64,000 nt of DNA from Escherichia coli (GCF_002854065.1 NZ_CP024147.1); one strand, 5' to 3'; positions 7,144 to 64,000 are shown, counted from the stretch's first letter. Numbers and translations are program-made. The notes: generated by a model not told the origin, from the sequence alone.

Positions 7144-8808
7144 ATGAGTGAGGCAGAAGCCCGCCCGACTAACTTTATTCGTCAGATCATCGATGAAGAT
7201 CTGGCCAGTGGTAAGCACACCACAGTACACACCCGTTTTCCGCCGGAGCCGAATGGCTATCTGCATATCGGTCATGCGAAATCTATCTGCCTGAACTTCG
7301 GGATCGCCCAGGACTATAAAGGCCAGTGCAACCTGCGTTTCGACGACACTAACCCGGTAAAAGAAGATATCGAGTATGTCGATTCGATCAAAAACGACGT
7401 AGAGTGGTTAGGTTTTCACTGGTCTGGTAACGTCCGTTACTCCTCCGATTATTTTGATCAGCTCCACGCCTATGCGATCGAACTGATCAATAAAGGCCTG
7501 GCGTACGTTGATGAACTGACGCCGGAACAGATCCGCGAATACCGCGGCACCCTGACGCAGCCGGGTAAAAACAGCCCGTACCGCGACCGTAGCGTTGAAG
7601 AGAACCTGGCGCTGTTCGAGAAAATGCGTACCGGCGGTTTTGAAGAAGGTAAAGCCTGCCTGCGTGCGAAAATCGACATGGCTTCACCGTTTATCGTGAT
7701 GCGCGATCCGGTGCTGTACCGCATTAAATTTGCTGAACACCACCAGACTGGCAACAAGTGGTGCATCTACCCGATGTACGACTTCACCCACTGCATCAGC
7801 GATGCCCTGGAAGGTATTACGCACTCTCTGTGTACGCTTGAGTTCCAGGATAACCGTCGTCTGTACGACTGGGTACTGGACAACATCACCATTCCTGTTC
7901 ACCCGCGCCAATACGAATTCTCGCGCCTGAATCTGGAATACACTGTGATGTCCAAGCGTAAGCTGAACCTGCTGGTGACCGATAAGCACGTTGAAGGCTG
8001 GGATGACCCGCGTATGCCGACCATTTCCGGTCTGCGTCGTCGTGGTTACACTGCGGCTTCTATTCGTGAGTTCTGCAAACGCATCGGCGTGACCAAGCAG
8101 GACAACACCATTGAGATGGCGTCGCTGGAATCCTGCATCCGTGAAGATCTCAACGAAAACGCCCCGCGCGCAATGGCGGTTATCGATCCGGTGAAACTGG
8201 TTATCGAAAACTATCAGGGCGAAGGCGAAATGGTTACCATGCCGAACCATCCGAACAAACCGGAAATGGGGAGCCGTCAGGTGCCGTTTAGCGGTGAGAT
8301 TTGGATCGATCGCGCCGATTTCCGCGAAGAAGCTAACAAGCAGTACAAACGTCTGGTGCTCGGTAAAGAAGTGCGTCTGCGTAATGCTTATGTGATTAAG
8401 GCAGAACGCGTCGAGAAAGATGCCGAAGGTAATATCACCACCATCTTCTGTACTTATGACGCCGACACCTTAAGCAAAGATCCGGCAGATGGTCGTAAAG
8501 TCAAAGGTGTTATTCACTGGGTGAGCGCGGCACATGCGCTGCCGGTTGAAATCCGTTTGTATGATCGTCTGTTCAGCGTGCCTAACCCAGGTGCTGCGGA
8601 TGATTTCCTGTCGGTGATTAACCCGGAATCGCTGGTGATCAAACAGGGCTTTGCTGAACCGTCGCTGAAAGATGCGGTAGCGGGTAAAGCATTCCAGTTT
8701 GAGCGTGAAGGTTACTTCTGCCTCGACAGCCGCCATTCCACTGCCGAAAAACCGGTATTTAACCGCACCGTTGGGCTGCGTGATACCTGGGCGAAAGTTG
8801 GCGAGTAA
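7144..8808 (+). CDS. glnS: glutaminyl-tRNA synthetase
   Basis: 554-aa ORF with class-I aaRS HIGH motif ([14 protein letters not shown]) and VMSKR (KMSKS-like) motif. Confidence 0.95.
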
Positions 8809-8820
8809 TTTTAAGTTTTA

Positions 8821-8985
8821 CCTGGCCGGGTGAAGCGTTTACGTCGCATCCGGCAAGGAACAGACAAACAGTTTCAAACGCTAAATTGCCTGATGCGCTA
8901 CGCTTATCAGGCCTACATGATCTCTGCAATATATTGAGTTTGCGTGCTTTTGTAGGCCGGATAAGGCGTTCACGCCGCATCCGGC
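8821..8985. repeat. REP/BIME cluster downstream of glnS
   Basis: Three REP units (GCCGGATGCGACG..., GCCTGATGCGCTACGCTTATCAGGCCTAC, GTAGGCCGGATAAGGCG...). Confidence 0.8.
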
Positions 8986-9007
8986 AAGAAACATGCAAAC
9001 AATCCCA

Positions 9008-9032
9008 AACGCCGCGGTCTGCGGCGTTTTTT
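9008..9032 (+). terminator. intrinsic terminator
   Basis: aacgccgc-ggtct-gcggcgtt hairpin followed by TTTTTT. Confidence 0.7.
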
Positions 9033-9387
9033 CTGCTTTTCTTCGCGAATTAATTCCGCTTCGCAATTTATCCATAAAATAAATTTAAAATAACAAAACA
9101 TAATTAAATAAAATATAACCGCTTTCATCTTGCTGGAAATTCACGCTTTTATTCTTCTGCAAGCCTTTCAACCGCAAACTTAAGCCTTGTAACAAAAATC
9201 ATCAAAATATGTGCGGTTGCTCATGTTCTTACATTCTGGTTACAGAAAGAGATTGATAATTCGCGTCGCGAAAAATAGTCTGTTCCTGTAGTCAGCGAGA
9301 CTTTTCTCAACGCTACTTTTTTAATTTTTATTTTTTTTCGCTGTTCACCTTTGGTGCAGCAATTTATACGTCAAAGAGGATTAACCC

Positions 9388-10794
9388 ATGCGTACGTTTA
9401 GTGGCAAACGTAGTACGCTGGCGCTGGCTATCGCCGGTGTTACAGCAATGTCGGGCTTTATGGCAATGCCGGAGGCTCGCGCCGAAGGATTCATCGACGA
9501 TTCAACCTTAACCGGCGGTATATATTACTGGCAGCGTGAACGCGACCGTAAAGATGTTACCGACGGCGACAAATACAAAACCAACCTTTCTCACTCCACC
9601 TGGAATGCCAACCTCGATTTTCAGTCCGGTTATGCTGCTGATATGTTCGGCCTTGATATTGCTGCGTTTACGGCGATTGAAATGGCGGAAAACGGCGACA
9701 GCTCTCACCCGAACGAAATCGCGTTTTCAAAAAGTAATAAAGCCTATGACGAAGACTGGTCCGGCGACAAAAGCGGTATAAGCCTGTATAAAGCTGCGGC
9801 CAAATTTAAATACGGTCCGGTTTGGGCGAGGGCAGGTTATATTCAGCCAACCGGTCAGACGCTGTTAGCGCCTCACTGGAGCTTTATGCCGGGTACTTAT
9901 CAGGGTGCGGAAGCCGGAGCGAATTTTGATTACGGCGATGCTGGTGCGTTGAGTTTCTCCTACATGTGGACCAACGAATACAAAGCACCGTGGCATCTGG
10001 AAATGGATGAGTTTTATCAGAACGATAAAACCACCAAAGTTGATTATCTGCACTCCCTTGGGGCGAAATACGACTTCAAAAATAACTTCATACTGGAAGC
10101 GGCATTTGGTCAGGCGGAAGGGTATATCGATCAATATTTTGCCAAAGCCAGCTACAAATTTGATATCGCCGGTAGCCCGTTAACCACCAGCTACCAGTTC
10201 TACGGTACGCGCGATAAAGTTGACGATCGCAGCGTCAACGATCTTTATGACGGCACCGCCTGGCTGCAAGCGTTGACCTTTGGTTACCGGGCGGCTGACG
10301 TAGTGGATTTGCGCCTCGAAGGCACCTGGGTTAAGGCTGAAGGTCAGCAGGGATACTTCCTGCAACGTATGACTCCAACCTACGCTTCCTCCAACGGCCG
10401 CCTGGATATCTGGTGGGATAACCGTTCCGACTTCAACGCTAACGGCGAAAAAGCGGTCTTCTTCGGTGCGATGTATGACCTGAAAAACTGGAATCTTCCA
10501 GGCTTCGCCATCGGCGCTTCCTACGTTTACGCATGGGATGCAAAACCTGCGACCTGGCAGAGCAATCCGGATGCGTACTACGACAAGAACCGGACTATTG
10601 AAGAATCTGCATACAGCCTGGATGCGGTCTACACCATTCAGGATGGCCGCGCCAAGGGCACGATGTTCAAATTGCACTTCACCGAATACGACAACCACTC
10701 CGACATCCCAAGCTGGGGCGGTGGTTACGGCAACATCTTCCAGGATGAGCGTGACGTGAAATTTATGGTAATCGCACCATTCACCATCTTCTGA
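9388..10794 (+). CDS. chiP: chitoporin (OprD-family outer membrane porin)
   Basis: 468-aa ORF with signal peptide ([32 protein letters not shown]) and C-terminal aromatic residue typical of beta-barrel porins; followed by chiQ. Confidence 0.9.
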
Positions 10795-29704: not shown

Positions 29705-30157
29705 ATGACGGAGTATTATCTCAATGAAACTGTTGTAACTTTTCCCGGGAATATTATTCAGGACAGTACGATTAATATGCTGCGCCTCAGCGATCCCGAC
29801 GCTGCACTCATTATCAGTCGGGGCCAGATGCAGGAAGGAGACGAATTAGCCTCCCAGATTGAACAGCAAATGAAAAAACTGGAGAAACAGGTAAAGGATC
29901 TTCACTACACGCCAGTTCAGGTAACACGGGTAGGGATTAATGACGGTGAACAAGGGCTGGAAATACAGAGCCAGTTTCTCCGGGGTAACGAGCAGGTGTA
30001 CCAGTGTCAGGTGGCATTTGTATTGCCGGGTGAGCGGGTCATGATGGCCTTCACCTACGCCAGAACCACACCGCTGACCCCGGCAGATATGACGCGCTGG
30101 GCTGAAATTAAAAAGAATCTGCGCTTCAGGATGCGGCAGGAAGCCAGGACGAATTAA
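29705..30157 (+). CDS. Eag-family (DUF1795) chaperone for a prePAAR effector, EagR-like
   Basis: 150-aa ORF MTEYYLNETVVTFPGNIIQDSTINML... immediately upstream (18-bp gap) of an Rhs gene that carries a prePAAR motif and TM regions; size, position and N-terminal pattern fit Eag chaperones. Confidence 0.6.
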   Translation: MTEYYLNETVVTFPGNIIQDSTINMLRLSDPDAALIISRGQMQEGDELASQIEQQMKKLEKQVKDLHYTPVQVTRVGINDGEQGLEIQSQFLRGNEQVYQCQVAFVLPGERVMMAFTYARTTPLTPADMTRWAEIKKNLRFRMRQEARTN

Positions 30158-30175
30158 TCATACAGGGAACGGGAC

Positions 30176-33100
30176 ATGGAAGAGGCATTCTGGGCGGCAA
30201 GACAGGGTGATGCCCTGCTGCATACGTCGTTTATGGCAGATGTGCTGGGGGCGGTGCTGGAGGTGGCCGCAAATGTCGTTATTGATGCTCTCATTGTCGG
30301 CACAACCTCGTTACTGGCGGCGTCAGTGGGGTTCACGATGGGGTGCACGGCCGTCGTGCTGACCGGTTTTGTGGCGGGTGTGGCGATGGTGTACACCGGC
30401 GTGACAGAAAAGGTCAGCGAAGCCTGTTCAGCCCTCGCAGATATGCTTTTCCCGCCTCAGATTGAAGGTTACATCCTCACCGGCTCTGGTGACACATGGA
30501 TCAACAGCAAACCTGCCGCGCGGGCAGCGGCGACTGCGGCATCGCGGCAGGACATTGAGGCGCAGGAGGCGCAGTCGAAGGCGGAACAGGAAGAAGCGCA
30601 GCGTCAGGAGGATGCCAGAACGTTCCGGGATGTGGCCGGGGAATATCTGGAAATGGCGGGGGCCATAGCCCTGGCGGTTAACCCGGTGACAGGGCCTGTG
30701 CTGATGTCCCGGGCGCTGCACGACCAGCTCAGTACGGAAGAAGGGCGTTCTGAAATGGTGGATGGCGTGACACATTTTGTGTCGGAACTATGGCAGCCCA
30801 CTGTGGCCAGTGCGGCCCCGGGCTCCACCCCGACCCCTGACGATAAAATCGACTGCCATAAACATCCTTCCTCACTGACGCAGTTTCTCGCACAAAAAAA
30901 AGCTGCCTTTCTGGATGACCCCCTGGGAACGGCCCTTAACCTGCTGAGTCCGGACGGTATGCTGGAAACCGCCTTTCAGGGAGTGAATGCGGTTATTGGC
31001 AGCATCAGTAATCTGTTCAAAGGCGATGACGAGCCGCCCGCAGCGGAATATATCGCGGAAGGCGCGCGGGATGTGCGTATCAACAGCCAGCCGGCGGCAC
31101 GCAGCGGGGCACGCTGTACCTGCGAGGCCAGGGTGGTGAATGAGCCGGGGAACGGGGCGTTTGTGTCACCGGATGTGCGCATTGGCGGTCCGTTACTGGT
31201 GGTCAGGGATATCAGAAGCGGCAGGTCGCAGATAACCCTGGTGGCAACTGTGGCGCTGATGTTTCTTCGCCCGGGCAAAATGCTTTCTAAAATCGCCTGT
31301 TTTGCTGCCAGTGTCGGGATGAGCATGCTGGCGCAGAAGGCCACCAGAGCCCTTCCGCATCCGGTCAATGCCGCCACCGGGGCCAAATACCTTGCCGATG
31401 ACGATGACTTCGATTTCAGTCTGCCGGGCCACTTTCCGCTGGACTGGCAGCGCGTGTACAGCAGTCGTGACGAACGCACGGAAGGAATGTTTGGTCAGGG
31501 CTGGAGTGTGATGTATGAAGTCAGCCTGGTGCGCACACCGGGTAACGCGGACGAAAACTGCATGACCTTTGTGTCGGGCATGGGGCGACGCCTGGATATG
31601 GAAGCCGTGCTGCCGGGGAGCGGGTTTTACAGCCCCGGCGAAGGACTGGCAGTCCGGCGTGGTGAGCAGGGGCACTGGCTTATCAGCAGCGATGATGGAC
31701 AGTTTTTTCTGTTTGAAGCCGACCCGCACAACCCGCAGCGCCAGCGGCTGAAAATGCTGGGCGACCGTAACAGCAACTGTCTGAATCTGTACTACGACGA
31801 CCGGGGACGTATCACTGAAATCAGCGGCGAACAGCAGCGTCCGTGCATCCGTCTGTATTACGAACTGGCGGCGCATCCCCGGCGGATGACACAGATTTAT
31901 CAGCATTTCCCTGAGACTGCACCTTTACTGCTGCGTCGTTACAGCTATGACGAGGCCGGCCACCTGAACGGCGTGTACGACAGCACGGGGCACCTGCTGC
32001 GTGAGTTTGCTTACGACGAAAACCACTGCATGACGCTGCACCGCCAGCCGGGCGGCGAAGGGTATTATTACCAGTGGGGCTGGTATGACGGTCCGGATGA
32101 TGCGGCGTGGCGGGTAACGGGGCACCACACGGACAGCGGTGAACAGTACCGGCTGGCGTGGGACCTGGCGCAGCGCAGGCTGTGCGTGACGGACGGACTG
32201 GGGCGCACGCGTTATCACCAGTGGGATGCGCAGAATCAGGTGACGGCGTACCAGGACGAAGCCGGACAGGTGACGACATTCCGCTGGAGCGACGAAGAAC
32301 GACTGTTGCTGGGGATGACCGACCCTCAGGGCGGCAAATGGCGCTATGTGTATGACCGGCAGGGGCATATCACGGAGACGCACGACCCGCTGGGGCGGGT
32401 GGCGCAGGCGCAGTGGCACCCGGTGTGGCACCAGCCGGAAACGGAGGTGGACGCGGCGGGAAACAGCTGGCGCTGTGTGTACGATGAACGCGGCAACCTT
32501 CTTGCCGTGACCGACCCGCTGCAGCAGAACACCCGGTATCAGTATGACCACCACGGCCAGGTGGTGCAGATAACGGATGTCCGTGGGGGGAATAAATACC
32601 TTCAGTGGAACGAAGACGGGCAGCTCATGCGGCATACGGACTGTTCCGGCTCGCAGACGGCCTGGTTCTACGACGAACGCACGCGGCTGATACGGATGAC
32701 AGACGCGCAGAGCCACAGCACGCGCTACGGGTATGACGACAGCGGTCATCTGACGGAGGTGATACTGGCGGACGGCCGCACGGTGAATTACCAGTCAGAC
32801 GCGGCGGGCAGGCTGGTGAAGTACACCAGCCCGATGGGGAGGATAACGCGCTGGCAGCGGGACGGGCAGGGCCGGGTGCGCAGCCGGACGGACGCGATGG
32901 GGCGCAGGACGGCGTTCGGGTACGACGCTTACGGGCGTCTGGTCACGCTCACGAACGAGAACGGAGAACGCTACCGGTTCCGCCATGATGTGCTGGACCG
33001 TCTGGCGGAGCAGATAAACCCGGACGGCTGCCGCCAGTCGTACCGCTACAACGCGCTGAACGCGGTCACGGAAGTGGTGTTCACCGGGGACCGGGGCGGT

Positions 33101-34810
33101 GAAATCCGCCACCGGCTGGCGCGTGATGCGGCGGGCCGGCTCACGGCAAAGGAGACAGCCGATGGCCGTACGGAATACGTCCATGATGCGGCTGACCGGC
33201 TACTGGAAATCCGCCGCCGGCGGTCGGATGCCGGGGAAACGGACGCCCCGGAGATTATCCGCTTCAGCTACGACAGACTGGGGCGGATGCTGAGCGAGGA
33301 GACGGCGCAGGGCATCCTGACCCACCAGTACGATGAACTGGGCAACCGGACTGCCACCACCTTTCCGGACGGCAGAACGCAGCGCCATCTGTACTACGGC
33401 AGCGGCCATCTCCAGCAGATAAATCTGGACCGGGAAGTCATCAGCGAGTTCACGCGCGACCACCTGCACCGTGAAGTGCTCAGAAGCCAGGGGCGACTGA
33501 GCACGCGGCAGCTTTACGACCCCGGCGGGCGGCTGAAGCGCAGGGAGACATACAGCGGGATGCGCGGGGTGGTACCGGAGACGTTCACGGACCGGCAGTA
33601 CAGCTACAGTGGCGAGGATGAACTGCTGAAGACGCGGCACAGCCGGCGGGGGGAAACGGATTACTTCTACGACCCCACGGGGCGCATCACGGCGTGTCGT
33701 TCGGAGGATGAGGGGTATCTGGCGAGCTGGCAGTACGACGCGGCGGGAAACCTGCTGGGGAGGCGCGCGGGGGAAAGGGCCACGGCAGAAAACAGCGTGG
33801 TGCCGTTCAACCGGCTGATGTCTTACCGTGGTGTGCACTACCGTTATGACGAATTTGGCCGTGCGGTGGAAAAGGAGGGCCGGAGCGGAACGCAGAGTTA
33901 CCGTTATGATGCGGAACACCGGATGGTGGAAGTGACGACAGCGCGGGGGACATACCGGTATGTGTACGATGCGCTGGGGAGGCGGACGGAAAAACAGCAC
34001 ATCAGCCCTGACGGAAAACCGTACAACCGGACAAAATTTTTATGGGACGGGATGCGGCTGGCGCAGGAGAGCAGGCCGGAGGGGACAGGCAGCCTGTATA
34101 TCTACAGGGACCAGGGGAGTTATGAACCGCTGGCGCGGGTGGATAAGGCGGGGAAAGAGGGACCGAACCGGATACTGTATTTTCACACGGATGTGAACGG
34201 CGCGCCGGAAGAGATGACGGACAGTGACGGGAAAATCGTGTGGGAGACGGGGTATCAGGTCTGGGGTAACACGATACAGGAGAAGGACCACGGCAGGGTG
34301 GAGCAGAACCTGCGCTACCAGGGACAGTACCTCGACAGGGAAACGGGGCTGCACTACAATCTGCACAGGTACTATGATCCGGATGTCGGGCGGTTCATGG
34401 TAACGGATCCGATAGGGCTGCTTGGTGGATTAAACTTATACCAATATGCACCGAATCCGTTGGGGTGGATCGACCCGTTAGGTTTAAAGTGTGGGCAACC
34501 TGAATGGACAAATCATGGATACAAACATTTTCCTCCAAAAAACAAATCATGGAAGGATATAATTAAATCAACAAAATCAGGCCCGGCAAAATATTCTCCC
34601 GATATTGATATTAAAACGCTGGAATACGATGTTTTTAATACAGGCACACCTGTTACCAACGGTAAACCATGGAAAGTAAAAGATATGGGGAAAGTTATTG
34701 GGGCCAGTGAGGGTAAAGAATCTCAATGGGTTCGAGTTGAACTTAGCGGTGGGACAATACATGGACATCCCATATCACTTGATGAATTCCGAAGGCTAAC
34801 AACACCATGA
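30176..34810 (+). CDS. Rhs-family polymorphic toxin, class II prePAAR type VI secretion effector architecture
   Basis: 1544-aa ORF: prePAAR motif AARQGDALLH (aa 7-16), hydrophobic TM region 1 (aa ~20-76), split PAAR-like segments (INSKPAAR, INSQPAARSGARCTC), TM region 2 (aa ~349-390), long YD/RHS repeat core (YDxxGRL repeats), C-terminal PxxxxDPIGLxGGxNxYxYxxNPLGWIDPLGL boundary, then a short variable tip. Confidence 0.9.
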   Translation: MEEAFWAARQGDALLHTSFMADVLGAVLEVAANVVIDALIVGTTSLLAASVGFTMGCTAVVLTGFVAGVAMVYTGVTEKVSEACSALADMLFPPQIEGYILTGSGDTWINSKPAARAAATAASRQDIEAQEAQSKAEQEEAQRQEDARTFRDVAGEYLEMAGAIALAVNPVTGPVLMSRALHDQLSTEEGRSEMVDGVTHFVSELWQPTVASAAPGSTPTPDDKIDCHKHPSSLTQFLAQKKAAFLDDPLGTALNLLSPDGMLETAFQGVNAVIGSISNLFKGDDEPPAAEYIAEGARDVRINSQPAARSGARCTCEARVVNEPGNGAFVSPDVRIGGPLLVVRDIRSGRSQITLVATVALMFLRPGKMLSKIACFAASVGMSMLAQKATRALPHPVNAATGAKYLADDDDFDFSLPGHFPLDWQRVYSSRDERTEGMFGQGWSVMYEVSLVRTPGNADENCMTFVSGMGRRLDMEAVLPGSGFYSPGEGLAVRRGEQGHWLISSDDGQFFLFEADPHNPQRQRLKMLGDRNSNCLNLYYDDRGRITEISGEQQRPCIRLYYELAAHPRRMTQIYQHFPETAPLLLRRYSYDEAGHLNGVYDSTGHLLREFAYDENHCMTLHRQPGGEGYYYQWGWYDGPDDAAWRVTGHHTDSGEQYRLAWDLAQRRLCVTDGLGRTRYHQWDAQNQVTAYQDEAGQVTTFRWSDEERLLLGMTDPQGGKWRYVYDRQGHITETHDPLGRVAQAQWHPVWHQPETEVDAAGNSWRCVYDERGNLLAVTDPLQQNTRYQYDHHGQVVQITDVRGGNKYLQWNEDGQLMRHTDCSGSQTAWFYDERTRLIRMTDAQSHSTRYGYDDSGHLTEVILADGRTVNYQSDAAGRLVKYTSPMGRITRWQRDGQGRVRSRTDAMGRRTAFGYDAYGRLVTLTNENGERYRFRHDVLDRLAEQINPDGCRQSYRYNALNAVTEVVFTGDRGGEIRHRLARDAAGRLTAKETADGRTEYVHDAADRLLEIRRRRSDAGETDAPEIIRFSYDRLGRMLSEETAQGILTHQYDELGNRTATTFPDGRTQRHLYYGSGHLQQINLDREVISEFTRDHLHREVLRSQGRLSTRQLYDPGGRLKRRETYSGMRGVVPETFTDRQYSYSGEDELLKTRHSRRGETDYFYDPTGRITACRSEDEGYLASWQYDAAGNLLGRRAGERATAENSVVPFNRLMSYRGVHYRYDEFGRAVEKEGRSGTQSYRYDAEHRMVEVTTARGTYRYVYDALGRRTEKQHISPDGKPYNRTKFLWDGMRLAQESRPEGTGSLYIYRDQGSYEPLARVDKAGKEGPNRILYFHTDVNGAPEEMTDSDGKIVWETGYQVWGNTIQEKDHGRVEQNLRYQGQYLDRETGLHYNLHRYYDPDVGRFMVTDPIGLLGGLNLYQYAPNPLGWIDPLGLKCGQPEWTNHGYKHFPPKNKSWKDIIKSTKSGPAKYSPDIDIKTLEYDVFNTGTPVTNGKPWKVKDMGKVIGASEGKESQWVRVELSGGTIHGHPISLDEFRRLTTP
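30194..30223 (+). other. prePAAR motif (AARxxDxxxH)
   Basis: Codons 7-16 encode AARQGDALLH. Confidence 0.7.
34487..34810 (+). other. Rhs C-terminal polymorphic toxin domain (family not recognised)
   Basis: 107 codons after DPLGL: KCGQPEWTNHGYKHFPPKNKSWKDIIKSTKSGPAKYSPDIDIKTLEYDVFNTGTPVTNGKPWKVKDMGKVIGASEGKESQWVRVELSGGTIHGHPISLDEFRRLTTP; abrupt drop in GC relative to the Rhs core. Confidence 0.7.
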
Positions 34811-55005: not shown

Positions 55006-55008
55006 ACC

Positions 55009-55126
55009 GTAGGCCTGATAAGACGCGCAAGCGTCGCATCAGGCAACCAGTGCCGGATGCGGCGTGAACGCCTTATCCGGCCTACAAGTCATTACCCGTA
55101 GGCCTGATAAGCGCAGCGCATCAGGC
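55009..55126. repeat. REP/BIME cluster between sdhB and sucA
   Basis: Three REP units read directly. Confidence 0.8.
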
Positions 55127-59360: not shown

Positions 59361-59529
59361 TGTAGACCGGATAAGACATTATCGCCTTCTCCGGCAATTG
59401 AAGCCTGATGCGACGCTGAACGCGTCTTATCAGGCCTACGGGAAGCACCGATGTAGGTCGGATAAGGCGCTCGCGCCGCATCCGACAAGCGATGCCAGAT
59501 GCGACGCTTGCGCGTCTTATCAGGCCTAC
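59361..59529. repeat. REP/BIME cluster between sucB and sucC
   Basis: Three to four REP units read directly. Confidence 0.8.
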
Positions 59530-59614
59530 GGGTGACCGACAATACCCGGGAGCGATACGAAATATTCGGTCTACGGTTTAAAAGATAACGATTACTGAAG
59601 GATGGACAGAACAC

Positions 59615-60781
59615 ATGAACTTACATGAATATCAGGCAAAACAACTTTTTGCCCGCTATGGCTTACCAGCACCGGTGGGTTATGCCTGTACTACTCCGCG
59701 CGAAGCAGAAGAAGCCGCTTCAAAAATCGGTGCCGGTCCGTGGGTAGTGAAATGTCAGGTTCACGCTGGTGGCCGCGGTAAAGCGGGCGGTGTGAAAGTT
59801 GTAAACAGTAAAGAAGACATCCGTGCTTTTGCAGAAAACTGGCTGGGCAAGCGTCTGGTAACGTATCAAACAGATGCCAATGGCCAACCGGTTAACCAGA
59901 TTCTGGTTGAAGCGGCGACCGATATCGCTAAAGAGCTGTATCTCGGTGCCGTTGTTGACCGTAGTTCACGTCGCGTGGTCTTTATGGCCTCCACCGAAGG
60001 CGGCGTGGAAATCGAAAAAGTGGCGGAAGAAACTCCGCACCTGATCCATAAAGTTGCGCTTGATCCGCTGACTGGCCCGATGCCGTATCAAGGACGCGAG
60101 CTGGCGTTCAAACTGGGTCTGGAAGGTAAACTGGTTCAGCAGTTCACCAAAATCTTCATGGGCCTGGCGACCATTTTCCTGGAGCGCGACCTGGCGCTGA
60201 TCGAAATCAACCCGCTGGTTATTACCAAACAGGGCGATCTGGTCTGCCTCGACGGCAAACTGGGCGCTGATGGCAACGCACTGTTCCGCCAGCCTGATCT
60301 GCGCGAAATGCGCGACCAGTCGCAGGAAGATCCGCGTGAAGCACAGGCTGCACAGTGGGAACTGAACTACGTTGCGCTGGACGGTAACATCGGTTGTATG
60401 GTTAACGGCGCAGGTCTGGCGATGGGTACGATGGACATCGTTAAACTGCACGGCGGAGAACCGGCTAACTTCCTGGACGTTGGCGGCGGCGCAACCAAAG
60501 AACGTGTAACCGAAGCGTTCAAAATCATCCTCTCTGACGACAAAGTGAAAGCCGTTCTGGTTAACATCTTCGGCGGTATCGTTCGTTGCGATCTGATCGC
60601 TGACGGTATCATCGGCGCGGTAGCGGAAGTGGGTGTTAACGTACCGGTCGTGGTACGTCTGGAAGGTAACAACGCCGAACTCGGCGCGAAGAAACTGGCT
60701 GACAGCGGCCTGAATATTATTGCAGCAAAAGGTCTGACGGATGCAGCTCAGCAGGTTGTTGCCGCAGTGGAGGGGAAATAA
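59615..60781 (+). CDS. sucC: succinyl-CoA synthetase beta subunit
   Basis: 388-aa [23 protein letters not shown]... Confidence 0.96.
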
Positions 60782-61650
60782 TGTCCATTTTAATTGATAA
60801 AAACACCAAGGTTATCTGCCAGGGCTTTACCGGTAGCCAGGGGACTTTCCACTCTGAACAGGCCATTGCATACGGCACCAAAATGGTTGGTGGCGTAACT
60901 CCAGGTAAAGGCGGTACTACCCACCTCGGCCTGCCGGTGTTCAACACCGTGCGTGAAGCTGTTGCTGCTACTGGCGCTACCGCTTCTGTTATCTACGTAC
61001 CAGCACCGTTCTGCAAAGACTCCATTCTGGAAGCCATCGACGCAGGCATCAAACTGATTATCACCATCACTGAAGGCATCCCGACGCTGGATATGCTGAC
61101 CGTGAAAGTGAAGCTGGATGAAGCAGGCGTTCGTATGATCGGCCCGAACTGCCCAGGCGTTATCACTCCGGGTGAATGCAAAATCGGTATCCAGCCTGGT
61201 CACATTCACAAACCGGGTAAAGTGGGTATCGTTTCCCGTTCCGGTACACTGACCTATGAAGCGGTTAAACAGACCACGGATTACGGTTTCGGTCAGTCGA
61301 CCTGTGTCGGTATCGGCGGTGACCCGATCCCTGGCTCTAACTTTATCGACATTCTCGAAATGTTCGAAAAAGATCCGCAGACCGAAGCGATCGTGATGAT
61401 CGGTGAGATCGGCGGTAGCGCTGAAGAAGAAGCAGCTGCGTACATCAAAGAGCACGTTACCAAGCCAGTTGTGGGTTACATCGCTGGTGTGACTGCGCCG
61501 AAAGGCAAACGTATGGGCCACGCGGGTGCCATCATTGCCGGTGGGAAAGGGACTGCGGATGAGAAATTCGCTGCTCTGGAAGCCGCAGGCGTGAAAACCG
61601 TTCGCAGCCTGGCGGATATCGGTGAAGCACTGAAAACTGTTCTGAAATAA
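60781..61650 (+). CDS. sucD: succinyl-CoA synthetase alpha subunit
   Basis: 289-aa [27 protein letters not shown]...; start overlaps the sucC stop. Confidence 0.96.
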
Positions 61651-61749: not shown

Positions 61750-62316
61750 ATGCCTTAAACGGTTAACCACGGTCGAAATCTGACTGCAGGCTTGACTGCA
61801 TGACCACAGCCACTGTGGATTGCCGCAACCGACCGCAAGCCACGAATAAGAACGACGGCGAATTTCGAATCGTTACCTGATGCACTGGCTTCCCAGCGTT
61901 TGACCGTAGCGTTAAGTAAATCAACAAAAGCGATGTTCACCGCTTTTCGTCAAGTCGTGCCATTTGTCAGCCAGGATCGGGTCTTTACCCCGGATATTGC
62001 AGCATCGCAAAAATTCTTAGAGGGATATGCTATAAATCAAAAATAAAATCTTTGTTGATTGTTTATCATAATATCCACAGATATGATAAATGATATCAAT
62101 TTAATAATTTTCACTTAATGTGATTCCGGATAATTCGAAAGGCGCTGTGCTTTTCGGATTATTATTATCTGATTAAGATATTTGTCACGCCAGGCTTACT
62201 GGTTTATAAATGTCAATCATGATTCTTATAAATTATTTATTGCTGCTTTGGTTACCATTACTTCGTAATAAGTAATGTATTTTTGATTGTTTAAACTATT
62301 TTTAAGGGACGGCATT

Positions 62317-62416
62317 ATGCGAGGGAAAATACCTAAAACGGAACTGCTGGTGACTTTTGAGGTCGTCGCACGTCATGAAAGTTATACCAGAGCGGCAGAG
62401 GAGTTAGCGTTAACCC
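62317..62416 (+). pseudogene. 5' fragment (33 codons) of a LysR-type transcriptional regulator, truncated by IS1
   Basis: ATG preceded by AAGGGA; MRGKIPKTELLVTFEVVARHESYTRAAEELALT is a LysR-family HTH start; reading frame runs straight into the IS1 terminal repeat at 62417. Confidence 0.7.
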
Positions 62417-62431
62417 GGTAATGACTCCAAC

Positions 62432-62935
62432 TTATTGATAGTGTTTTATGTTCAGATAATGCCCGATGACTTTGTCATGCAGCTCCACCGATTTTGAGAA
62501 CGACAGCGACTTCCGTCCCAGCCGTGCCAGGTGCTGCCTCAGATTCAGGTTATGCCGCTCAATTCGCTGCGTATATCGCTTGCTGATTACGTGCAGCTTT
62601 CCCTTCAGGCGGGATTCATACAGCGGCCAGCCATCCGTCATCCATATCACCACGTCAAAGGGTGACAGCAGGCTCATAAGACGCCCCAGCGTCGCCATAG
62701 TGCGTTCACCGAATACGTGCGCAACAACCGTCTTCCGGAGCCTGTCATACGCGTAAAACAGCCAGCGCTGGCGCGATTTAGCCCCGACGTATCCCCACTG
62801 TTCGTCCATTTCCGCGCAGACGATGACGTCACTGCCCGGCTGTATGCGCGAGGTTACCGACTGCGGCCTGAGTTTTTTAAATGGCGGAAAATCGTGTTGA
62901 GGCCAACGCCCATAATGCGGGCGGTTGCCCGGCAT
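62432..62935 (-). CDS. insB: IS1 InsB (expressed as the InsAB' transposase by -1 frameshift)
   Basis: 167-aa ORF; slippery TTTAAAAAAC on the coding strand (T-run 62873-62878 on plus). Confidence 0.93.
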
Positions 62936-63129
62936 CCAACGCCATTCATGGCCATATCAATGATTTTCTGGTGCGTACCGGGTTGAGAAGCGGTGTAAGT
63001 GAACTGCAGTTGCCATGTTTTACGGCAGTGAGAGCAGAGATAGCGCTGATGTCCGGCAGTGCTTTTGCCGTTACGCACCACCCCGTCAGTAGCTGAACAG
63101 GAGGGACAGCTGATAGAAACAGAAGCCAC
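62854..63129 (-). CDS. insA: IS1 InsA
   Basis: 91-aa [46 protein letters not shown]... Confidence 0.95.
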
Positions 63130-63184
63130 TGGAGCACCTCAAAAACACCATCATACACTAAATCAGTAAGTTGGCAGCATCACC

Positions 63185-63655
63185 CACCACGATTTGCAAA
63201 ATTTCATTGTGCGCCATGGCATCGACAATGCTGGTGGGGAAAGCATGCGAAATAAATACTTTTAGCGTAAAGGGTTCTGCCGCGACCACTCCGGTGGTTT
63301 CGGCACCGTGTGCAACAAAATTAATTCCTGTACCTGGCATGAAGAAATTTACCGTTATCAAGCCTAAGGCAATTGACAGCAATGAGGCGCAAATAAATAA
63401 AAAGAGTGTTTTAGAAAAAATACGACCAAGGGCTTTGGCATCGCCCATTTTAGCAATACCTACCACCAGGGTAGAGACCACTAACGGAGCGATAATCATT
63501 TTTATCAGTCGTAAGAAAATCGTCGTGAATATCGATATTTCTTGCGCATAGAGTTTTGCGGTTTCCGGTGAAGCAGTGTTATTGAGCACTACGCCGATAA
63601 TCATTCCAAGTACCAGCGCCAAAAGAATCATCGTGGTTAAACTTATTTTCTTCAT
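63185..63655 (-). pseudogene. 5' part (~157 codons) of a sodium:dicarboxylate symporter (DAACS) family transporter gene, 3' end replaced by IS1
   Basis: MKKISLTTMILLALVLGMIIGVVLNN...IFLRLIKMIIAPLVVSTLVVGIAKMGD resembles the conserved N-terminus of GltP/GltT/DctA-type carriers; GGAGG RBS; frame runs into the IS1 end. Confidence 0.7.
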
Positions 63656-63815: not shown

Positions 63816-64000
63816 TTACAAATCGAAACTCATATTTAATAAAGGTGCATGTTGCTGTGCACCATAGACATCATTGTCACCTACATTCCCGGAGATAATA
63901 TCTCGTGGCATGACGATTTTTACTGCGTTAGAAGGATCAAACCAGACAATACGATGAATAAAGTCAGGTTCAACATGATATAAGCGCGCAATCAGTTCTG
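63816..64000 (-). CDS. 3' end of an unidentified ORF that starts beyond the window end
   Basis: Open reverse-strand frame to the window edge ending ...ELIARLYHVEPDFIHRIVWFDPSNAVKIVMPRDIISGNVGDNDVYGAQQHAPLLNMSFDL; same strand as and upstream of the transporter gene; family not recognised. Confidence 0.4.
   Translation of the reverse strand, partial: ELIARLYHVEPDFIHRIVWFDPSNAVKIVMPRDIISGNVGDNDVYGAQQHAPLLNMSFDL

Follow-up and report, generated by a model that had tools for sequence, protein, structure and literature searches.

A recent 4,021-bp deletion at an IS1 element removes one end of the methylaspartate-pathway cluster in an Escherichia coli clone

A single complete IS1 element, at positions 62417-63184 of a 64,000-nucleotide stretch of E. 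coli DNA (the window), joins the 5' parts of two converging genes, one for a LysR-type regulator and the other for a GltP-like transporter, and the 4,021 bp that separate these two parts in intact relatives are missing. The loss is a recent, IS1-mediated deletion, and on balance it probably proceeded through one IS1 copy, by an insertion followed by an intramolecular replicative transposition.

The element is recognised by its terminal repeats, its open reading frames (ORFs) and the NCBIfam model transpos_IS1; it is 768 bp long and carries its transposase genes on the minus strand. Its left end reads GGTAATGACTCC... and its right end ...GGCAGCATCACC, and each of these end sequences occurs once in the window, so this is the sole IS1 there. 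The insB-distal end, IRR (62417-62439), adjoins the LysR fragment, and the insA-proximal end, IRL (63162-63184), adjoins the transporter fragment; both are 23 nt long, and they are imperfect repeats with 78% complementarity. The insA gene (62854-63129, minus strand) encodes 91 aa, the insB' frame (62432-62935, minus strand) is an ORF of 167 aa, and the -1 frameshift motif TTTAAAAAAC (A6C) at 62872-62881 is undamaged. Searched against NF033558 (transpos_IS1), insB' scores 143.8 bits and the insA part 90 bits, the cutoff being 100. Members of the IS1 family were taken to be elements of about 768 bp with imperfect terminal inverted repeats of about 23 bp that begin GGT(G/A)ATG, and with insA and insB' joined by a -1 frameshift at A6C, all of which are found at 62417-63184. 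In length, 23-nt repeats, insA and insB', and A6C site, the copy is the same as the IS1A/IS1B-type elements of E. coli and Shigella.

What the copy lacks is the direct target-site duplication (TSD) of 8-9 bp that marks IS1 insertions. The 9 bp that adjoin its left end, CGTTAACCC (T1, 62408-62416), and the 9 bp that adjoin its right end, CACCACGAT (T2, 63185-63193), agree at 2 of 9 positions, and a repeat search for a hidden or shifted TSD found no direct repeat of at least 8 bp abutting both IS1 ends. Other IS1 copies at the same locus in related genomes do have 9-bp TSDs. A missing TSD is expected of a deletion joint, and the window copy differs from a typical IS1 in this one respect because its flanks stem from two different target sites.

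On the left, the LysR-family regulator gene is reduced to its first 100 nt (62317-62416, plus strand), that is, 33 codons and 1 nt. From the ATG at 62317 the frame borrows GG and a TAA stop (62419-62421) from IS1, which gives a predicted product of 34 aa; a product look-up for a 44-aa ORF with a TTG start returned no record. The fragment is 100% identical to that of strain XJ34, whose gene is 906 bp, and the intact protein matches LysR/GcvA-type NCBIfam models. On the right, the transporter gene (63185-63655, minus strand), which encodes a dicarboxylate/amino acid:cation symporter of the DAACS family (GltP/DctA-like), retains 471 nt or 157 codons of the 1,281 bp found in XJ34. Its frame starts at 63655, runs 8 codons into IS1 and ends at 63158, which predicts a product of 165 aa. 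The full-length proteins in related genomes have 301 aa (LysR) and 426 aa (transporter), and both short ORFs should be annotated as pseudogene fragments. The first-pass annotation of the window had placed IS1 at exactly 62417-63184 without an 8-9 bp direct repeat, and had recognised the first 33 codons of a LysR-type gene and the first ~157 codons of a DAACS transporter gene on the opposite strand, both reading into IS1; it was right on each of these points.

The two flanks were queried separately against 5,426 complete E. coli genomes. In XJ34 both are 100% identical to the window, the alignment is unambiguous on both sides of the junction, and the junction positions lie exactly 4,021 bp apart. 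The same 4,021 bp are present in XJ34, in the wastewater strain CUWW06 (NZ_CP182139.1), in O157:H7 and in about 1,120 other complete E. coli genomes; the interval was found in 1,127 of the 5,426 genomes, in 1,122 of these at full length. From the LysR side, the deletion has taken the last 806 nt of the 906-bp regulator gene, then the whole of cobO (cob(I)yrinic acid a,c-diamide adenosyltransferase) and of fumD (class I fumarate hydratase, a fumarase/mesaconase), and finally the last 810 nt of the transporter gene. None of the 5,426 genomes has the window's junction, and its four best partial matches among them were set aside as different IS1 events.

This comparison with the intact loci of XJ34 and CUWW06 bears out the earlier proposal that both genes had lost their 3' parts, through an IS1-mediated deletion or a recombination between IS1 copies rather than a simple insertion. 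A simple insertion whose TSD has decayed, or an IS-independent illegitimate recombination beside a bystander IS1, would account for the bare absence of a TSD and for nothing more, and is hardly credible: flanks that lie 4,021 bp apart in intact genomes refute the simple insertion, and breakage at random is at odds with two breakpoints that coincide to the nucleotide with IS1 ends and with 9-bp targets that IS1 has used elsewhere. The locus thus has the marks of an IS-mediated deletion, namely flanks that are not adjacent in intact relatives, a missing interval, and breakpoints formed by IS ends and bona fide IS targets.

From the annotation of XJ34 and CUWW06 and from NCBIfam, the locus is the methylaspartate-pathway cluster for glutamate fermentation, an island between sucD and cydA that is present in some E. 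coli only. The genes are ordered glmS-glmL-glmE-mal-atuA-like-DUF4387-gltP-fumD-cobO, and a convergent LysR gene closes the far end. Of the cluster, the window contains only the 5' parts of the transporter and LysR genes and the 3' part of the DUF4387 gene (63816-64000, minus strand), the next island gene, which is cut by the window end. In relatives, the genes beyond DUF4387 (atuA-like, mal, glmE, glmL and glmS) are all intact, and in those relatives that share the window's right junction, glmS-glmL-glmE, mal and two downstream genes are intact. For the O157:H7 cluster, Kronen & Berg (2015, PMC4682846) give the order glmS-glmL-glmE-mal-DUF1446/AtuA-DUF4387-gltP-fumD-cobA, together with a LysR-type regulator. 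The gene set and order are the same here, and the interval is 99.3% identical to that of O157:H7 strains; unlike the O157:H7 cluster, that of the window has its four LysR-end genes deleted or truncated, and the mutase and ammonia-lyase half is left.

With the deletion, the strain loses the LysR-type regulator, the CobO adenosyltransferase, the FumD mesaconase and the GltP-like transporter of the cluster. A second adenosyltransferase exists in E. coli. FumD is a mesaconase/fumarase, and FumA and FumB have some mesaconase activity as well (Kronen & Berg, PMC4682846). On these two grounds, some residual function of the pathway is conceivable despite the loss.

The left border of the island is conserved. 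The sucD gene (60781-61650, plus strand), a 289-aa ORF that carries this name in XJ34 and CUWW06, is followed towards the regulator by an AT-rich intergenic or promoter region upstream of the LysR gene (62000-62316, GC 0.23-0.34). Between sucD and the LysR gene, a hutH remnant (histidine ammonia-lyase, 3' end) occupies positions 61853-62046 and includes a 48-aa ORF (61900-62046, plus strand). ST648-like E. coli (145 complete genomes) have a full hut operon at this place, which suggests that hut was lost by an older deletion in most island-bearing strains. Further upstream, the intergenic stretches between sdhB and sucA (55007-55114) and between sucB and sucC (59422-59531), of about 110 bp, are about 85% identical in inverted orientation and look like repeats of the REP/BIME type.

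Window and XJ34 align collinearly at 99.6-99.9% identity, with two exceptions, this deletion and an Rhs polymorphism. The Rhs region, the sole other structural difference between the two, consists in the window of an intact gene for a 1,544-aa RHS-repeat core protein with a DcrB-related gene before it (29705-34810); it is matched in just 234 of the 5,426 complete E. coli genomes, and degraded fragments are all that is present in XJ34. CUWW06 is closer still: over ~63 kb it differs from the window by 5 SNPs and 1 homopolymer indel, and it keeps the full island, including the 4,021-bp interval. At least 40 IS1 matches were counted on its small chromosome (4.65 Mb), the median per E. coli genome being 11, and the IS1 population of this clone appears to be expanded and active.

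One of these CUWW06 copies (1605420-1606187) is a simple insertion, independent of the window's, with the TSD TATCCACAG, which corresponds to window positions 62072-62080. It lies 336 bp upstream of the window's IS1 site in the same orientation, shows no difference from the window's element over 768 positions (768/768 identical), and is called IS1B-family with a programmed frameshift by RefSeq. In strain MEW, another independent simple insertion of IS1 has its TSD at 62300-62308, over the ribosome-binding site of the LysR gene. A derivation of the window's junction from the CUWW06 insertion was considered and rejected, as no left junction at 62416 results from an element at the 62080 site in either intramolecular polarity, and that target is present in the window once and uninterrupted.

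The near-identity of CUWW06 to the window, its retained interval and its identical IS1 indicate that the deletion is recent, that it took place in an IS1-active E. coli clone, and that the donor IS1 would have been resident there. The first-pass annotation had likened this decay to that of Shigella-like genomes, and this can be kept in part. The nearest complete relative is indeed rich in IS1; the host is an E. coli, though, and the dense IS elements, numerous pseudogenes and broken synteny of Shigella and Shigella-like genomes are not seen in the window, which has one IS1 in 64 kb and is collinear and otherwise intact.

Both halves of the junction recur in other public assemblies. The left junction is found in four contigs, one of them from GCA_035821435.1 (L008; the others are L011, L013 and L014), and the right junction in five (L003-L007); over as much as 8.5 kb, these contigs match the window or CUWW06 at 100% identity, and those with the left junction may stem from other samples than those with the right. 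They bear on the idea of an assembly artefact, in which IS1 copies at T1 and at T2, with the 4-kb interval still between them, had been collapsed into one. A collapse is imaginable because IS1 is present in many copies (at least 40 matches in the nearest relative) and every IS1 interrupts the short-read assemblies of this lineage. It is nevertheless very improbable, since in the window unique DNA follows a complete IS1 on either side, contigs with the T1-IRR and IRL-T2 junctions occur in independent assemblies, and no record has the second junction that a T1 insertion would create; moreover, the complete genome of strain EC2641 has a parallel deletion that was assembled independently.

IS1 transposes replicatively within the chromosome and generates duplications of 8-9 bp (PMC12428005), and adjacent deletions as well as recombination between IS copies are standard causes of a missing TSD (PMC11708052). 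In the route favoured here, a resident IS1 would first have inserted at T2 in the gltP-like transporter gene, and the same IS1 would then have attacked T1, in the LysR gene, by intramolecular replicative transposition. With deletion polarity, such an event would leave on the chromosome one IS1 between T1 and T2, and the intervening DNA would depart on a non-replicating circle and be lost. The reverse order, T1 first and then T2, could equally apply as a mechanism, but T2 was probably the first to be used.

The same final sequence would arise in another way, and the window alone cannot separate the two. If two IS1 elements had inserted in direct orientation at T1 and at T2, RecA-dependent homologous recombination between them would have left one hybrid IS1 and exactly the end product seen. 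This two-copy route is a serious possibility, if a less probable one: both T1 and T2 have attracted IS1 in independent lineages, identical IS1 copies are numerous in the clone, which also has several insertions at this locus, and recombination between IS copies is listed among the common causes of a missing TSD (PMC11708052). It calls for three events rather than two, and its intermediates did not turn up, which speaks weakly against it. No contig on record has IS1 at both T1 and T2. Among the contigs shown with a 271-aa transporter remnant (10 of 13 places), none ends at T1; they pass it uninterrupted or stop elsewhere. An IS1 at T1 in the window's orientation with the interval intact was sought by two exact look-ups of guessed gene products, a search of low sensitivity, and neither predicted product was found. 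The one-copy route is favoured, though weakly, by its smaller number of events, by this failure to find the double insertion or the T1-only insertion, and by an insertion at T2 alone, in the right orientation, in a background nearly identical to the window.

The insertions at T2 were found by predicting both simple-insertion intermediates and looking up their exact products. Simple insertions of IS1 at exactly these 9 bp occur in three other lineages. In one group of contigs (L026, L030, L034 and L035), which are mutually identical and share a private SNP and hence represent one lineage, the IRL end is joined to the transporter 3' side of T2. For ERR10960881 and ERZ18534393 the partner junction is available too (transporter 5' part, T2, IRR end), and it reveals that T2 was duplicated (9 bp) by a plain insertion whose orientation is opposite to that of the window's IS1. 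An origin of this group as the inversion product of the same transposition was rejected on the grounds that its contigs continue through an intact LysR gene into sucD and that the partner junction from the same samples is a plain insertion with a TSD.

A junction like that of the proposed intermediate occurs in contig L033 (SRR23696841), which differs from CUWW06 by 1 SNP in 4,374 bp. Here the IRR end is joined to T2, as predicted for a simple T2 insertion oriented like the IS1 of the window, and the 3' part of the transporter gene is intact together with fumD, cobO and the LysR gene. The same T2 junction occurs in L031, from a lineage that is about 1.3% diverged. The 3' end of L033 stops at window position 62073, one base into the target of the CUWW06 IS1, with no IS1 sequence there, and this stop may reflect a mixed population or a branch in the assembly graph. 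Because the site is specific to CUWW06, L033 may belong to the CUWW06 sub-lineage and record a parallel event at T2 rather than the true ancestor.

T1 has also been used more than once. In ST648-like contigs (L009, L010 and L012), an IS1 variant, with the end GGTAATGGTGCC..., occupies the same position in the opposite orientation. In these contigs the hut operon still separates sucD from the LysR gene, and the DNA upstream shares about 88% identity with that of the window. Taken with the T2 insertions, this shows both endpoints of the deletion to be, on the evidence of independent junctions, genuine IS1 targets. At this locus, IS1 targets tend to be G+C-rich 9-mers between runs of A/T, and these fit the IS1 target preference that Zerbib et al. 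reportedly described in 1985. The independent reuse of both breakpoints implies that target preference can determine in advance where an IS1 deletion ends, and T1 and T2 offer two natural sequences for the study of IS1 target choice.

A second deletion resembles that of the window. In EC2641 (NZ_JALDNN010000001.1; L015 6100-7549), an IS1 in the same orientation and without a TSD joins the 5' part of the LysR gene to the 5' part of the transporter gene, and cobO and fumD are lost as in the window. EC2641 differs from the window in its endpoints: it has lost 3,910 bp, its LysR fragment is ~409 nt long and its transporter fragment 273 nt. Its background is about 1% diverged, and this is an independent, parallel event.

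The transporter gene is damaged in further ways. One assembly (GCA_000457475.1, KE699742.1; L023/L028) has a composite insertion in this gene, 23 bp from T2 (L028, about 7200-9980), with a 9-bp TSD (XJ34 L001 3498-3506); it consists of two IS1 copies, 97% identical, on either side of another IS that encodes a DDE_Tnp_1 transposase. A Q154* allele, three codons before T2, occurs in several unrelated assemblies (L021, L022, L025, L027, L029 and L032). A disrupted allele with two indels relative to XJ34, in which the transporter and fumarase genes are split, is present in L024. From these alleles, the transporter seems to have been inactivated repeatedly and by different means.

In all, the inactivating events tallied are three IS1 insertions at T2, the composite 23 bp away, Q154*, the frameshifted allele and two independent IS1 deletions. 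Repeated inactivation of the transporter and regulator end could be due to hot-spot targeting alone or, less probably, to selection for loss. The notion that the whole locus is a hot region for IS1 was dropped, as the median IS1 load predicts roughly what was counted among about 1,120 complete genomes with the island, namely five loci affected by IS1, from four independent events; the one exception to that expectation is the reuse of T1 and T2 to the very nucleotide. If T1 and T2 were true site-specific hot spots and this end of the cluster were under selection for loss, the deletion would be a convergent, IS1-channelled adaptive loss rather than neutral decay, but this combined reading is unlikely.

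The deletion is therefore of a known kind and due to a known element, an ordinary IS1 deletion that changes nothing in what is known of IS1 or of the methylaspartate pathway. IS1 deletions next to gal were reportedly described by Reif and Saedler in 1975, and replicative deletions by IS1 are said to have been described by Turlan and Chandler in 1995. Adjacent deletions mediated by other elements include examples from IS150 and IS903 (reviewed in PMC11708052). The window is like these cases in that the IS is kept at the novel joint without a TSD, the DNA directly adjoining it on one side is lost, and a nearly identical background has a simple insertion at one endpoint. It is unlike them in that the direct ancestor was not caught, the one-copy route being inferred, and in that the second endpoint, too, has been used independently by IS1.
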